Below, piece after piece: positions 4,328 through 64,000 of a stretch of 64,000 bases of DNA. The stretch spans positions 3,108 to 67,107 of the forward strand of contig CBFGJZ010000006.1 in NCBI GenBank assembly GCA_965649215.1. The letters are read 5' to 3'. The position numbers were made by a program, and so were the translations under genes. The notes under the pieces were generated by a model, which saw only the letters and a list, made by a program, of their open reading frames with translations, did not search any database and was not told the DNA's origin. Position 1 is the stretch's first letter. Each line of letters starts with the position of its first letter. The DNA is from a candidate division WOR-3 bacterium (GTDB lineage: Bacteria > Hydrothermota > Tepidihabitantia > Tepidihabitantales > CAIPLT01).

Positions 4328-4349
4328 GAATTTAATAAATATAATACTA

Positions 4350-4671
4350 CTGTCGGTAAGATTGCTTCAGTCGCTTCACTCCTTCGCAATGACAAAAACG
4401 GGACTGTATGTAAGATTGCTTCAGTCGCTTTGCTCCTTCGCAATGACTAAAGGGTAAATGTCATTGCGAGCGAATGTAATGAGCGTGGCAATCTTGCCGA
4501 CAGTGAGAAAAAGAGAATACAAAGACACTATGATGATTAAGGGATTTTTACCGGCTGTAAGATTGCTTCAGTCGCTTTGCTCCTTCGCAATGACAAAAAC
4601 GGGACTGTATGTAAGATTGCTTCAGTCGCTTTGCTCCTTCGCACTGACGAGACTTGGAGTCTTGCCGACAG
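4350..4671. repeat. Cluster of palindromic repeat units. Four direct copies of a 38-nt unit (gtaagattgcttcagtcgctttgctccttcgcaatgac) lie at 4356-4393, 4410-4447, 4557-4594 and 4611-4648. The first two and the last two are each separated by an identical 16-nt spacer. An inverted, diverged copy lies at 4460-4505, and the cluster is bounded by ctgtcgg / ccgacag terminal inverted sequences.
   Basis: Read directly from the sequence. The spacer aaaaacgggactgtat is identical at 4394-4409 and 4595-4610. The same unit recurs at 8945-8982. Confidence 0.85.
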
Positions 4672-4684
4672 TAAAGATTAAATA

Positions 4685-33879: not shown

Positions 33880-33952
33880 TACCCCTGGTGAGATTCGAAC
33901 TCACGACCTACGGTTTAGGAAACCGTCACTCTTTCCAACTGAGCTACAGGGG
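33880..33952 (-). tRNA. tRNA-Arg (anticodon CCT)
   Basis: Manually folded cloverleaf on the minus strand: acceptor GCCCCTG/CAGGGGT; D-arm GCTC…GAGT; anticodon stem ACGGT/ACCGT with loop TTCCTAA; T-arm GTGAG-TTCGAAT-CTCAC; discriminator A; CCA not encoded. Confidence 0.85.
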
Positions 33953-34000
33953 CTAATCATATCATTATATTAGATTAATAAATTCTGTCAATCAATTATC

Positions 34001-40658: not shown

Positions 40659-41141
40659 TCGCTGTTTAAGCCGTGATTATCTGTGGCAAAAACAAAAATA
40701 TTATCTAAACCATAATTTTAACAATTAACAATATAACTTTATTAAATAAGTATTATTTGCGTGTATGATAATTTTATTTTTAAATAGAATAAAAAATAAA
40801 TATATATTAGATATAACATACTAAATTTCAAATAGATAAACCACTTTCGCTTAAAGTATGAGTATAGTGCCCTCGTAAGTCTATTTATATTCGATTGAAT
40901 TCAATTTATAAAGCTACTTGGCGACTAAACGAATTATCTTTTCATCATTTACAATATCAATATCTTAATAACTTAATCAATTCTCACGTTTGTATTTTTT
41001 CTTCTTGATAGTCTTTATTTTAATTTTTTAATATACTTCAGAATTAAAACACTTAATTATATGTCTTATTATTAATGGATCAATATAATAATTTACTTAC
41101 CTTTATATATCAGATATAGAGAACTTTGGAAATTAGAGATT

Positions 41142-44804: not shown

Positions 44805-46373
44805 TTATTTTGCATATTCAATGGCTCGAATTTCACGAATAACAACAACTTTAATCTGTCCGGGATATTTCAATTCAGTCTGTATTTGCTGCGAAATTTT
44901 ACGAGATAACTCTTCAGCCTGAGCATCTGAAATTTTCTCGGGTTTTACCATAACGCGAATCTCCCGACCGGCTTGAATCGCAAAGGCTTTTTCTACGCCA
45001 TCAAATGAAACGGCAATATTTTCAAGTGCTTGTAAACGATTTATATACGATTCAAAATTATCTCTTCGCGCACCAGCTCGAGAACCCGATATTGCATCAG
45101 CTGCAGCGGTTAAGAAAGCGTACGGCGACCGTGGTTCCACTTCTTCATGATGGGCAGCAATGGCATTTACAATAATTTCGTTTTCACCATAACGTTCAGC
45201 TAAATCAGCACCGATTTTAGCATGAGGACCTTCAAAATGAATATCTGCTGCCTTACCAATATCATGAAGTAATCCCGCTCGTTTTGCCATCATTGGATCA
45301 AGATTTAATTCTTGTGCCATTGCGTTTGCTAATATCGCAACTTCTTTAGAATGTAATAAAACATTTTGTCCATAACTGGTTCGATATTTGAGTCGACCTA
45401 AATGTTTTATAAGTTCAGGGTCAATATTACTAATTCCGAATTCAAGAACTGTTGTTTCCCCGATATTCATAATGATACTTTCCATTTCATTCTTTGTTTT
45501 TTCAACAATCTCTTCAATTCGAGTTTGATGAATTCTACCATCCGCAATTAACTTTTCCATAGCTAATCGAGCAATTTCTCTACGAATTGGATCAAACGCG
45601 GATAAGATTATAGCATTTGGTGTGTCATCTATAATTACTTCAACACCAGTTAGTGTTTCAAACGCACGTATATTCCGTCCTTCCCGACCAATTATTCGGC
45701 CCTTCAACTCATCAGAAGGAATATTAATAACTGATATTGTCGTATCAGAAACTTGTGAAAGAGCACACCTTTGTATTGCATTCAAAATAATCTCCATAGC
45801 TTGTTTATCGGCTTCACGTTTTGCTTTTTCACGAATATCTCGGATCATTTGAGCAGCTTCTAATTGTACTTGAGCTTCTAGATTCTGCAGTAATTCTTTC
45901 TTCGCATCTTGGATACCCAAATTTGCAATACGTTCTAACCGTTGGTTCTGCATATTAATCAACTGGTCTAATCTTTCAGTCTTCGCTTTAATTATTTTCT
46001 CTTTCGTTGTAATTTCTCGTTGATTTTTAAGTAACTCGCTTTCCCGAGTTGCTAAATTAATATCCTTGATATTTAGTAATTCCTCTTTCTCACGAAGTCG
46101 TTTTTCAAGTTTTTCTAGATCTTTTTTAGTTTCCAATAATTGTTGTTCTAATTTTATTTTTTCTTGATGTATTTTTTCGTTAACTTCCAGCTGGGCTTGT
46201 CGTTTAATATTTTCCGCTTCCGTTTTTGCATCTTCAATAATTCTAAATGCCGAACGACGTGTTGTGTTAAGATAATTTTTATTTATTATCCGAATAATAA
46301 AATATGCTAAAAGTATGCAAATAAATAATAATAATACAGGCATTATAAACTTTAAAATTTCAAAAGATAACAT
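44805..46373 (-). CDS. rny: Ribonuclease Y (ORF track starts at TTG 46388; the ATG at 46373 is preceded by a GGGGGGAAG RBS)
   Basis: N-terminal TM + coiled coil, KH domain, HD domain (HSKEVA…LLHDIGKA); 522-527 aa. Confidence 0.85.
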   Translation of the reverse strand: MLSFEILKFIMPVLLLFICILLAYFIIRIINKNYLNTTRRSAFRIIEDAKTEAENIKRQAQLEVNEKIHQEKIKLEQQLLETKKDLEKLEKRLREKEELLNIKDINLATRESELLKNQREITTKEKIIKAKTERLDQLINMQNQRLERIANLGIQDAKKELLQNLEAQVQLEAAQMIRDIREKAKREADKQAMEIILNAIQRCALSQVSDTTISVINIPSDELKGRIIGREGRNIRAFETLTGVEVIIDDTPNAIILSAFDPIRREIARLAMEKLIADGRIHQTRIEEIVEKTKNEMESIIMNIGETTVLEFGISNIDPELIKHLGRLKYRTSYGQNVLLHSKEVAILANAMAQELNLDPMMAKRAGLLHDIGKAADIHFEGPHAKIGADLAERYGENEIIVNAIAAHHEEVEPRSPYAFLTAAADAISGSRAGARRDNFESYINRLQALENIAVSFDGVEKAFAIQAGREIRVMVKPEKISDAQAEELSRKISQQIQTELKYPGQIKVVVIREIRAIEYAK

Positions 46374-46389
46374 AATTCTTCCCCCCAAT

Positions 46390-46643
46390 TTTAATATCCT
46401 AAGACTTTTAAATAATAAAAATCCCCGCTACAATTCGTGTAAGCAGGAGTCTTTGAACCCTAAAAACAAGTGGGCGTCATCGCTAATATTTTCTGTACGC
46501 AATAAAAGCTTACATCGACATCAGCATCAGACACCCAAACAATGGGTGTTAGCTCAAGACTTCATGGCTTATCACGAAGCGAGCAGGGAGTTAATCTCTA
46601 ATTCAAATAACAATTTACAAAAAGGTATTACTGTTATTTGAAT
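46390..46643 (-). ncRNA. Candidate structured non-coding RNA or leader in a GC-enriched intergenic region between zapA and rny (6S-RNA-like position by analogy with zapA-ssrS synteny; unverified)
   Basis: Local GC is clearly above the AT-rich intergenic norm. A 9-bp perfect hairpin lies at 46602-46638 (caaataaca…tgttatttg). No ORF is present. Confidence 0.25.
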
Positions 46644-46910
46644 CTAAACAATTCTTTCCAATTTTTCAATGAGCAAACCGATACGACGATTTATTTGATC
46701 ACTTTCATTCTCTTGAGCAGTTAAAAAATCATCAACTAAATTTATACATGATACAATTGCAGTTTTTGCTAAAGAACCTTGTGGATATTGTGTATTTATC
46801 ATTTTCATTTTTTCATCAACAATTTTTCCAATTTTATAAATATAATCACCGTTACGATCGGTTTTTATTTTGTATTCACTACCAAAAACATTTAAACTGT
46901 AAGTTTTCAT
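46644..46910 (-). CDS. zapA: Cell-division protein ZapA
   Basis: 88 aa, ZapA family pattern (…V.I.G..Y.I……L…A..VD……). Confidence 0.6.
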   Translation of the reverse strand: MKTYSLNVFGSEYKIKTDRNGDYIYKIGKIVDEKMKMINTQYPQGSLAKTAIVSCINLVDDFLTAQENESDQINRRIGLLIEKLERIV

Positions 46911-46933: not shown

Positions 46934-47122
46934 TTATAACATTTTAGATAAATTGTCAAGCATAATATTAATTTTTTCAATTAATTGGTTATCGCGATGT
47001 TTCAAGGACTCAAGGATATTTTTCAGACATCTGTTCTCTTCTTGTAAAACATTAATCAGATTTATTGCTTTATCAATTTTATCTTCTAAGTATCTTAAAT
47101 TAGCATCAACTTTTTCGTTCAT
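46934..47122 (-). CDS. Small coiled-coil protein, ZapB-like (cell-division associated)
   Basis: 62 aa, continuous heptad coiled coil, immediately upstream of zapA. Confidence 0.45.
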   Translation of the reverse strand: MNEKVDANLRYLEDKIDKAINLINVLQEENRCLKNILESLKHRDNQLIEKINIMLDNLSKML

Positions 47123-55878: not shown

Positions 55879-56737
55879 TATAAATAGAATAAAATTAAAA
55901 AACTAGATAGTCAAGTATATTCTATAATCGCTTTATAATTTATTTATTTTTTATTCAATTCTTAATGATTTACCGTACCCAAAACCATAATTGCCATCAT
56001 CAACATCTTGGGTGCTCCATAATAAATCATTGCGATAACTTGGGGAAAACGTATAACTAGATCATGATAAAAAAGTATTTAAATAATTTATTTTTAGATC
56101 CAACACTATAATTTCTTAATCTCTTTCTCCCCTAATAACAAAAAAATATTTATCTGACGTATTGATACCTTTTACAAATCTGTGCTCTTTAGTGTAAATT
56201 ATTATTTTATTTATTTTTCTTGCCAACCATTTTTAAAATTTATAAATCGGATATATTTCTTTTTGATTAGTTAGTAAGCATATTTTTTGGAAAAAACTGA
56301 ATTGTTATCATAAAGAAATATATTTGAATAGAGTAATATTTTATTTCATTGATAAATTCTGTTTGTATAAATCTGGATAATAAATCTTTGACAATTTATT
56401 TGTTTTGTAATTATAAAAAATTGTAAGATTATCAATATTAAAATCATAATCGGTCATCATGTCATCATATTCATAACAAGTATTGATTAAACAATAACCC
56501 TCGTTGTCGCCATTTATAGTAATTATAACTGTCACAATTAATTGCTATATTATAATAAAAGACCTATCTTCTATTACAATTTCTTCAGTAGGTGTAATTA
56601 TTACTTTTTGTGATTTTCTGCAAGTGGCATTAAGTTTTATTTATAGTAATTAAAGCCTTTATTTTAATTTAATTATAATTTTATTATTAATAAATACTAA
56701 TTGACTTTAAGATATCTCTTAAATATAATAATGAATT

Positions 56738-59789: not shown

Positions 59790-60147
59790 ATATTTATGCC
59801 AATCGTTTTATATTCACCATGTTGTAAAGTTTTTCGACTTTAATATACTAGATCACCATACCTATTATTAATTATTGAAATCATAAATTCAAAGATGTGA
59901 ACTAATTAGTTAATTATTTTGTTGTGTTTTTTTATATAATATATTCATAATCAATAACTAACAATAAAAATCTGTATTTTAGGGGTATAGTGCTCTACTT
60001 TAAATTTTGATATTAATAGGATTGAATGATGTAAATTAGTTTTGTAGATTTAGTATTTATCAGGAAATTTAGATATCAAAGTTCTTCTAAAGATATTTAT
60101 TATTTATGATCTATGATTCAGTTTTATAATTAAATAATTTATCTCTG

Positions 60148-60360
60148 TTAATTTGTCTCTTTAGATTTTGATTTATTTATCATACTTACTAAAACTCCAA
60201 TTACAAATCCTATAGCTGTAGTGATTATTAGTAATAATATTAAGGGCATTTGTATTGAGATAAAAAGAATATGCGCTTGGACAGGTGCTCGATTCTGAAT
60301 GATTACAATGACAAGAATAATGACTAATATAATTATACTAATCAACTTCTTAATGTTCAT
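60148..60360 (-). CDS. LapA/YciS (DUF1049)-like small inner-membrane protein
   Basis: 70 aa, two TM segments with an interhelical QNR…V motif. Confidence 0.45.
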   Translation of the reverse strand: MNIKKLISIIILVIILVIVIIQNRAPVQAHILFISIQMPLILLLIITTAIGFVIGVLVSMINKSKSKETN

Positions 60361-60515
60361 ATTATCCTATCTCCTTTTTTAGAATAAATAATCTCAATAA
60401 ATGTTAATTTAATAATCAATAATGTCAATATTAAATATATCTAAATGCAGTGAATTATAATGTTAACATTACCTATTGACAAAAGTATTTTTTTTGTTAA
60501 AGTTTTATTCAAATA

Positions 60516-62371: not shown

Positions 62372-64000
62372 ACCCAAAATATAAAATTTTGACAACTATT
62401 TGCCCGTTCTGTAAATATGGGTGTGAACTAAGTATTCAAGAAATGAATCAAGGAAATTATAAATTGCATCAAATAGAATATTTAAAAAGTTCAGGAATAA
62501 ATCAAGGACGACTTTGCCCTCGTGGCAATTCTGCTAAAATACTGTTGAGTCATCCCAAACGATTAACTTATCCTCTATTTAATAATAAAATTTTAAAATG
62601 GAGCGATATCATTCAAGATATACAAAAATTGATCCAAAACAGTTCTCCAGAGAACATAGCAATTACATATGATTGCAATAATACACTTGAAGAATTTTCT
62701 GATATCTACAATTTTGCGCATGCCCTCAAAACTGAAAACATAAGCTGCGTTTATTTTCATCCCGAACAATTTTTTAATTATGCGGTTAGCGAAATCAAAC
62801 AAATTGATATAAAAGACTTAAATAATAGCAAATTTTTACTAGTAATTGGTGATATTTTTGCTAAATCACCAGTCATTTCTAAACATATTTTAGATATTAA
62901 ATATAGCGATCGAAATAACAAAATATTTTATTTTGATGTGATTAAATCAAAATTAGCAGGTTTTGCAGATAAATTTATTTGGCTAAATCCAAATACAGAA
63001 CCGTTGGTTTTATTAGCCCTAATTTTAGAATCAAGTCGAGCAGCAAAGAATATTATAAGCAATAAGTACTACAATGAATTAACAAAGTTATTACCAACAA
63101 TCTATGAATTTCTTAATGTCAAACAAAAAGATATTCAAGATATTTGTCAAACTTTATTGAACAATCCCCATAGTCTAGTGCTTGTTGCCACAGACTTCGG
63201 TAAGACTAAAGACCCTTTATTGCTATCTCTCTTAAGTCAATTGTTTGCATCAATAACTCCATCTAAAAAATATTGTAGTTTAGCTTTAGCATCGATTCCT
63301 TTATCGAACATTAAATTTAGCACTATCTTAAATAAGATTAGAGATAATAAGATTAAAATACTAATTCATTTTGGTGAAGAATTTCCATATTATTATCCAC
63401 AATTACATCAATTTTTAATTAATTTAGATGTATTTATTTACACTTCAATGCTACGCAGTAACAGAGATCTATTAGCTAAACGAAATTACATTTTACCTGT
63501 TACTTCAACAATAGAAAAACAAGGGACTATAAATACTTTATGGTCAAAAACAACTATAAAACCAGTTATAGCTCCGATTGATGGCGCAAAATCCGTATCA
63601 GAAATAATTACTTTGCTTCATCCACATTTAAACCGAAATGCAAAAGTCAATTTAAATTATAAATCTCCTATTGATATAGAACGATTAATAAATCGTTGTA
63701 TCGAATATTGTAAGAATTTCTCTATAAATACTAATTCTGATGACTTTCATTTAATTGGTGAAGAATCAGCATATAATTATCGTGGGTATTTTAACGATTG
63801 CTCAAAGGAAGTTAAAATTAATCCTATCACAGCTAAAAAAATTAATATTAAAAATAACGACAGAATCCTTCTTATTTCTAACAATTGTCAAAAAGTATTT
63901 ATTACAAAAATTGTTAACTACTTGCCTTTAGATACAGTCTCAGTATCAACCGATTTACCCGATAATCGTTTACTATTTCCGATACAATTTGATAATTTAA
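62368..64000 (+). CDS. Divergent molybdopterin (Mo/W-bisPGD) oxidoreductase catalytic subunit, 3'-truncated by the window end; cytoplasmic (no Tat signal)
   Basis: N-terminal CxxCxxxC…C 4Fe-4S Mo-bisPGD motif (CPFCKYGCEL…GRLCPRG). Open frame with no in-frame stop to 64000, per hand translation. ATGA overlap with the upstream gene. C-terminal molybdopterin-dinucleotide-binding-like segment. Confidence 0.5.
   Translation, partial: MNPKYKILTTICPFCKYGCELSIQEMNQGNYKLHQIEYLKSSGINQGRLCPRGNSAKILLSHPKRLTYPLFNNKILKWSDIIQDIQKLIQNSSPENIAITYDCNNTLEEFSDIYNFAHALKTENISCVYFHPEQFFNYAVSEIKQIDIKDLNNSKFLLVIGDIFAKSPVISKHILDIKYSDRNNKIFYFDVIKSKLAGFADKFIWLNPNTEPLVLLALILESSRAAKNIISNKYYNELTKLLPTIYEFLNVKQKDIQDICQTLLNNPHSLVLVATDFGKTKDPLLLSLLSQLFASITPSKKYCSLALASIPLSNIKFSTILNKIRDNKIKILIHFGEEFPYYYPQLHQFLINLDVFIYTSMLRSNRDLLAKRNYILPVTSTIEKQGTINTLWSKTTIKPVIAPIDGAKSVSEIITLLHPHLNRNAKVNLNYKSPIDIERLINRCIEYCKNFSINTNSDDFHLIGEESAYNYRGYFNDCSKEVKINPITAKKINIKNNDRILLISNNCQKVFITKIVNYLPLDTVSVSTDLPDNRLLFPIQFDNL

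Follow-up and report, generated by a model that had tools for sequence, protein, structure and literature searches.

On the minus strand of the window, by which is meant the whole 64-kb (64,000-nucleotide) stretch of DNA that was analyzed, the zapA and rny genes are separated by a spacer that contains a structured RNA element and several smaller features, which are given here in the direction of transcription.

46934–47122, minus strand: small coiled-coil ZapB-like ORF of 62 aa, 5′ of zapA (Pfam ZapB, 27.1 bits, short of the cut-off of 31.5)
46644–46910, minus strand: zapA, 88 aa, directly upstream of the 6S gene (Pfam PF05164 ZapA, 45.9 bits, E 7.5e-12)
46641–46669, minus strand: candidate 6S promoter of the sigma-70 type (9 of 12 positions agree with the consensus)
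46601–46643, minus strand: perfect 12-bp AT-rich inverted repeat, ATTCAAATAACA / TGTTATTTGAAT, with a 19-nt loop (inverted-repeat search)
46418–46592, minus strand: 6S/SsrS RNA gene, 175 nt by the Rfam boundaries (RF00013 match)
46410–46421, minus strand: U-rich tract UUUUUAUUAUUU, beginning 1 nt past the closing stem of the RNA, probably the 3′ terminus of 6S or the signal for its termination
44805–46373, minus strand: rny, the RNase Y gene, 522 aa counted from its ATG at 46373 (Pfam RNase_Y_N, KH, and HD)

The stop codon of zapA occupies 46646–46644, and the rny ATG is located 44 nt 3′ of the Rfam 3′ boundary of 6S; the first-pass annotation of this DNA, which had placed the zapA stop at 46644 and the rny start at 46373, had both coordinates right. 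The zapB-like/zapA pair adjoins pheT, which lies further upstream, and a gene encoding a YmdB-family phosphoesterase is found downstream of rny. In Bacillus, YmdB is likewise encoded downstream of rny.

The spacer had originally attracted attention as a GC-enriched interruption of intergenic DNA that was otherwise described as extremely AT-rich. The enrichment is genuine for the 175-nt core (46418–46592), whose GC fraction of 0.44 falls at the 98th percentile among all windows of that length and whose flanks have values of 0.25 and 0.20, whereas the spacer as a whole stands at only 0.36 versus 0.328 for the window. The description of the remaining intergenic DNA is only roughly correct, as the other gaps in a crude gene map, some of which may contain small genes, range in GC from 0.15 to 0.43. 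All three of the quoted GC-rich runs occur in the spacer, where they read as reverse complements on the minus strand.

Other parts of the same crude gene map contain compositionally unusual regions. A 54-nt tandem repeat (4349–4451; 1.9 copies, 89% identical) adjoins an apparent gap at 4444–4684 with a GC fraction of 0.43 and no gathering-level Rfam match, and four AT-rich stretches (55879–56737, 59790–60515, 62372–64000, and 40659–41141; GC 0.22–0.28) lack any ORF of at least 100 aa, although small genes or regulatory regions may occur in them.

When the complete window was searched against Rfam 15 at the gathering threshold, two matches were returned. One is a tRNA gene at 33880–33953 on the minus strand (RF00005, 69.8 bits); the other is the 6S RNA family RF00013, which matches 46418–46592 on the minus strand with 61.1 bits where the gathering score is 46.4, at E-values of 1.2e-9 (whole window) and 7.7e-12 (local), in an alignment that spans model positions 1–187 of 187 and thus the full model. 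The aligned features include the closing stem, a conserved UGAGC motif that runs on into the 5′ strand of the central bubble, a GGG/CCC helix that closes the bubble on its apical side, and a GGUUCAA motif on the 3′ side. No other Rfam family matched in the scan of the spacer apart from the Listeria sRNA rli22 (RF01457), which was rejected as a chance match (20.8 bits versus a gathering score of 80, E 0.46). The first-pass annotation had put forward a 6S-like RNA as a hypothesis and had named an Rfam/Infernal search for RF00013 in advance as the way to check it, and that search is positive.

The predicted secondary structure is that of a 6S RNA. The 175 nt lie within the 6S-type length range of about 160–200 nt, and their minimum free energy (MFE) fold, at −67 kcal/mol, is a single rod that opens internally into a large bubble; the mean for dinucleotide shuffles is −41.4 ± 3.9 kcal/mol (z = −6.56), and none of 200 is equally stable. 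The MFE fold and the RNAalifold consensus agree on one extended rod, in which a large central bubble, single-stranded on both sides, is placed between conserved helices. With RNA nucleotide n corresponding to window coordinate 46593 − n, the parts of the molecule are as follows.

RNA nt 5–11 (46582–46588, minus strand): 5′ strand of the closing stem, CCCUGCU, Helix 1 of the consensus structure
RNA nt 16–26 with 149–158: helix 2
RNA nt 30–42 with 134–146: helix 3
RNA nt 43–56 (46537–46550, minus strand): 5′ strand of the central bubble, 14 nt, AACACCCAUUGUUU, unpaired in the MFE and consensus folds
RNA nt 57–121 (46472–46536, minus strand): terminal (apical) stem-loop arm, helices 4–7, with covariation in helices 5 and 7
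RNA nt 122–133 (46460–46471, minus strand): 3′ strand of the central bubble, 12 nt, ACUUGUUUUUAG, unpaired in the MFE and consensus folds
RNA nt 164–170 (46423–46429, minus strand): 3′ strand of the closing stem, paired with nt 5–11

Related loci were fetched with the Rny protein as query, which yielded six usable metagenome contigs and three contigs from metagenome-assembled genomes (MAGs), all at 70–79% Rny identity, together with a distant locus from a Bacilli MAG (L004). The three MAGs of the close loci bear the NCBI labels ‘candidate division WOR-3’, ‘Candidatus Latescibacterota’, and ‘uncultured bacterium’. RF00013 matches were found directly upstream of rny in all nine close relatives, with scores of 45.9–61.8 bits, and the order zapA, 6S, U-run, rny is constant across the related loci, with zapA preceding 6S wherever the upstream flank was examined. 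In the distant Bacilli locus no 6S was found near rny, and the 6S–rny linkage is therefore not general. The same contig carries a class B RNase P RNA at positions 1–308 (232.9 bits), about 2.7 kb upstream of rny.

Across the ten loci the core shows 85% column identity with long invariant blocks, and the flanking spacer cannot be aligned. Conservation begins at the 5′ end of the RNA, with (A/G)(A/G)CUCCCUGC, and ends past the U-run that follows the closing stem. The analysis of aligned homologous regions, which had also been proposed beforehand, recovers the same rod with 49 pairs, in which 96.7% of the cells form standard pairs, versus 34–44% when the partners are slid by 1–3 columns. Compensatory changes, in which both sides of a pair differ, were found at 12 of the 49 pairs versus 5.0 ± 1.6 in column shuffles, none of 500 shuffles reaching 12. 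The covariation resides mainly in the apical arm and helix 2, with nine of the twelve compensatory pairs in helices 5 and 7. The closing stem, which is paired in 100% of the cells, is invariant or nearly so, as are helix 3 and helix 4, and these helices speak neither for nor against pairing; near-invariance of the closing stem and of the helices flanking the bubble is, however, the pattern anticipated for helices in contact with the polymerase.

Three of the nine relatives score 45.9–46.4 bits, at or just under the gathering score of 46.4 (L002, 2706–2880; L006, 2629–2801; L007, 2706–2880), and the clade therefore represents a somewhat divergent branch of the 6S family. Annotation based on the threshold would miss part of its 6S genes, which synteny with zapA and rny could rescue.

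Taken together, the full-length family match, the rod with its bubble, the covariation, the boundaries of conservation, the lack of a conserved reading frame, and the synteny leave us highly confident that the zapA–rny spacer encodes a 6S (SsrS) RNA of about 175–185 nt, extending on the minus strand from 46592 to about 46418–46410. The call of a structured RNA on the coding strand made in the first-pass annotation is thus borne out by the stability of the rod, its covariation, and its recurrence in nine of nine relatives.

The first-pass annotation had also offered the element as a long 5′ leader of rny, and a cis-acting regulatory leader of the rny mRNA, for instance an autoregulatory target of RNase Y or an attenuator resembling a riboswitch, is the most serious of the other explanations, although we consider it quite improbable. 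The element does lie on the rny strand, with only 44 nt between it and the start of rny (27 in L003), most loci have no consensus promoter between it and rny, and a stem followed by a U-run could work as an attenuator. However, the entire element fits the 6S covariance model end to end and above the gathering score, no other Rfam family matched, and the fold is the 6S rod with its central bubble rather than an expression platform that switches between a terminator and an antiterminator fold. The distance from the element to the ribosome-binding site of rny, moreover, varies from 27 to 130 nt, over sequence that cannot be aligned. Being part of a transcript that contains rny would in any case not conflict with identity as 6S RNA. 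The leader proposal is therefore not the main answer to what the element is, but it is perhaps partly true in a physical sense, given the gap of 27–44 nt in some loci.

It is still less probable that the element is a structured 3′ untranslated region or terminator of zapA that lacks an independent function. In every locus it follows zapA directly on the same strand, which would suit such a region, as would the U-run after a long stem, but 175 nt and an invariant internal bubble of 14 and 12 nt are more than a terminator requires, and no match to the 6S model would be expected of one. In addition, the nucleotide conservation of the core exceeds that of zapA itself, and a separate hairpin is already present at the zapA stop in most loci.

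Finally, a protein-coding origin is barely credible, as the uninterrupted plus-strand ORF at 46315–46641 (108 aa), rejected here as a gene, is broken in five of the seven distinct relatives, the relatives compared retain no common stop-free frame across the core on either strand, the apical loop carries 1–2-nt indels among them, and the ORF runs antisense to 6S and overlaps the rny start. This ORF is likely the source of a spurious ‘hypothetical protein’ call.

The region between zapA and 6S contains a further structural element. The first-pass annotation had described a perfect 9-bp hairpin at 46602–46638 and assigned it to the RNA; the hairpin is real but larger than that, as the perfect repeat extends to 12 bp at 46601–46643 (arms 46601–46612 and 46632–46643), and it is a separate element upstream of the RNA, located directly past the zapA stop and 8 nt before the 5′ end of 6S. 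It is the sole perfect inverted repeat of at least 12 bp (loop 3–40) within the 64 kb, and none of 1000 Markov-1 resamples of the spacer gave a 12-bp repeat. Non-homologous hairpins, some of which make use of the last zapA codons, occupy this position in six of eight distinct loci, and the two loci that have no hairpin after zapA have short zapA–6S gaps of 8 and 20 nt; across the loci examined the distance from the zapA stop to the 6S 5′ end ranges from 8 to 51 nt, with 51 nt here. Because the position and the structure of the hairpin recur and its sequence does not, a role at the RNA level is indicated. A canonical intrinsic terminator was considered and rejected, since only 2 of the 12 pairs in the stem are G–C, the loop is 19 nt long, and the sequence that follows is UAGAGAUUAAC, with no U-run. 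The hairpin is no part of 6S and probably belongs to the 3′ end of the zapA mRNA, and our best guess, held with low confidence, is that it serves as a 3′ stabilizer of the zapA mRNA or as a processing determinant between zapA and 6S.

Transcription of 6S would come from upstream, through read-through from zapA and/or from a promoter overlapping the 3′ end of zapA. A candidate promoter of the latter kind consists of a −35 element TTGAAA (46669–46664), situated within the last zapA codons, a 17-nt spacer, and a −10 element TAGATT (46646–46641) that overlaps the zapA stop codon. The TTGAAA hexamer lies within zapA codons 80–83 (CTC ATT GAA AAA; 46659–46670), which are invariant at the nucleotide level, and among amino-acid-invariant codons, identical ones make up four of five in this 3′ block versus two of twenty elsewhere in zapA (Fisher p = 0.0055). 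Such suppression of synonymous variation at the 3′ end of zapA fits an embedded promoter, for which TTGAAA/TAGATT is a candidate only. In the flank-inclusive alignment, most relatives have TTGAAA followed by a 15-nt spacer and TATAAA. When the loci were scanned upstream of 6S for the sigma-70 consensus, no promoter emerged at a consistent place, since both the −10 element and its spacing from the RNA vary, and the TTGAAA-17-TAGATT site therefore stays a candidate.

At the other end of the RNA, a run of 5–8 T residues is present within 1 nt of the closing stem in all ten loci, and the sequence beyond it is not conserved. The whole rod together with the U-run probably acts as an intrinsic-type terminator hairpin, or at least marks the 3′ end of 6S. 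A scan for intrinsic terminators found none, but it accepts only loops of 3–8 nt and is thus blind to a stem of the size of 6S.

The gap between 6S and rny spans 27–130 nt across the loci (27 nt in L003, 44 nt in the window and in L010), and the sigma-70 scan detected no consensus promoter in it in most loci. Because this gap is in several loci too short for a separate promoter, at least part of rny transcription probably reads through 6S. In E. coli, ssrS is co-transcribed with its downstream gene. A more far-reaching suggestion, which we regard as tentative and rather doubtful, is that 6S is not free-standing but forms the 5′ part of the rny transcript, from which it would be excised, possibly by RNase Y itself, with the RNase Y mRNA arising by read-through of the 6S stem and U-run. 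The order zapA–6S–rny–ymdB, the gap of 27–44 nt, and the lack of a detectable promoter within the gap lend this suggestion some, though limited, plausibility. If it is true, the level of 6S, a global brake on transcription, would be coupled to that of the main endonuclease of mRNA decay, and the 6S closing stem with its U-run would constitute a tunable attenuator of rny. Among the papers searched, none links ssrS to rny by position. In the one experimental study of RNase Y and 6S, the enzyme cleaved B. subtilis 6S-1 RNA within the 5′ bubble strand in vitro, although no specific role in 6S decay could be assigned to it (PMC10578484).

As a member of the 6S family, the RNA would act on RNA polymerase. 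The central bubble of the rod would imitate the melted DNA of an open promoter, and the RNA would thereby bind the holoenzyme of RNA polymerase with the housekeeping sigma factor in its active-site cleft, sequestering the polymerase when nutrients are scarce. With rising NTP levels during outgrowth, the polymerase would copy the 5′ bubble strand into a short pRNA, and 6S would be released. Open-promoter mimicry, occupation of the active-site cleft, and pRNA-mediated release are established for the 6S RNAs of E. coli and B. subtilis (PMC10578484, PMC8876501), and we infer polymerase binding and pRNA synthesis for the present RNA from its family.

The start of the pRNA was mapped by setting E. 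coli ssrS and the window 6S in common Rfam model coordinates. The pRNA of E. coli is experimentally established to start at U44 (PMC8876501); this residue occupies model position 45, which corresponds here to C45 (window 46548), in the 5′ bubble strand. The resulting template is the following.

RNA nt 30–45 (46548–46563, minus strand): predicted pRNA template, from the alignment to E. coli via the Rfam model

The pRNA is accordingly predicted to start opposite C45, to begin 5′-GUUAGCUCAAGAC..., and to read 5′-GUUAGCUCAAGACUUC over the template, 15 of whose 16 positions are invariant in all ten loci.

The gene described here is a regular member of a well-known family, which standard Rfam-based annotation would find, and the established view of how 6S RNA works is unchanged by this locus. 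The value of the result for annotation lies in the placement of a 6S gene in an AT-rich uncultured lineage, whose relatives are labeled WOR-3 or Latescibacterota, and in the removal of a spurious antisense ORF. The zapA–6S adjacency, best known from Proteobacteria, extends to a distant lineage and may thus serve as a synteny anchor for divergent 6S genes. The 6S–rny linkage is a minor new observation, and two global regulators of RNA metabolism would be linked if co-transcription is real.

Comparison with E. coli 6S RNA reveals a common architecture and a partly common genomic setting. Both RNAs belong to RF00013 and form a rod with a closing stem, a central bubble, and an apical arm, with 175 nt here versus 183 nt in E. 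coli, and they can be aligned both at the conserved UGAGC motif, which runs on into the 5′ bubble strand, and at the position of the pRNA start. The model score is much lower here (61 bits versus 140 for E. coli 6S). In E. coli K-12, zapA, a 41-nt gap, ssrS, a 75-nt gap, and fau follow one another on one strand, and the first-pass annotation, which had cited the adjacency of zapA and ssrS in gamma-proteobacteria, was correct on this point: in both organisms 6S is directly downstream of zapA on the same strand, with a gap of 51 nt here versus 41 nt in E. coli. The synteny zapA–6S–ygfA has been described as typical of Gammaproteobacteria (PMC9788540). The downstream genes differ, being rny and then ymdB here versus fau/ygfA in E. 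coli, as does the 3′ end, which has a U-run directly after the closing stem here and none in E. coli. The 3′ end of E. coli 6S is made by processing. Lastly, the predicted pRNA begins with a G opposite C45, whereas that of E. coli begins with an A opposite U44.

In this last respect the RNA resembles 6S-1 RNA (bsrA) of B. subtilis, whose pRNA is initiated at C40 and so starts with G (PMC8876501); the start at a C within the 5′ bubble strand and the initiation with G are both as predicted here. B. subtilis also shares with this organism the use of RNase Y rather than RNase E. The genomic contexts are different, as 6S RNA has rarA as its neighbor in Firmicutes, and rarA and uspA in Lactobacillales (PMC8414754), and a single 6S copy was found within the 64-kb window here, a further point of difference. 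A final likeness may lie in the rearrangement of the bubble: ACCC (nt 46–49) and GGGU (nt 133–136), a pairing candidate that was spotted by eye and lies in invariant sequence, may form a collapsed structure of the central bubble comparable to the CBCH of 6S-1.
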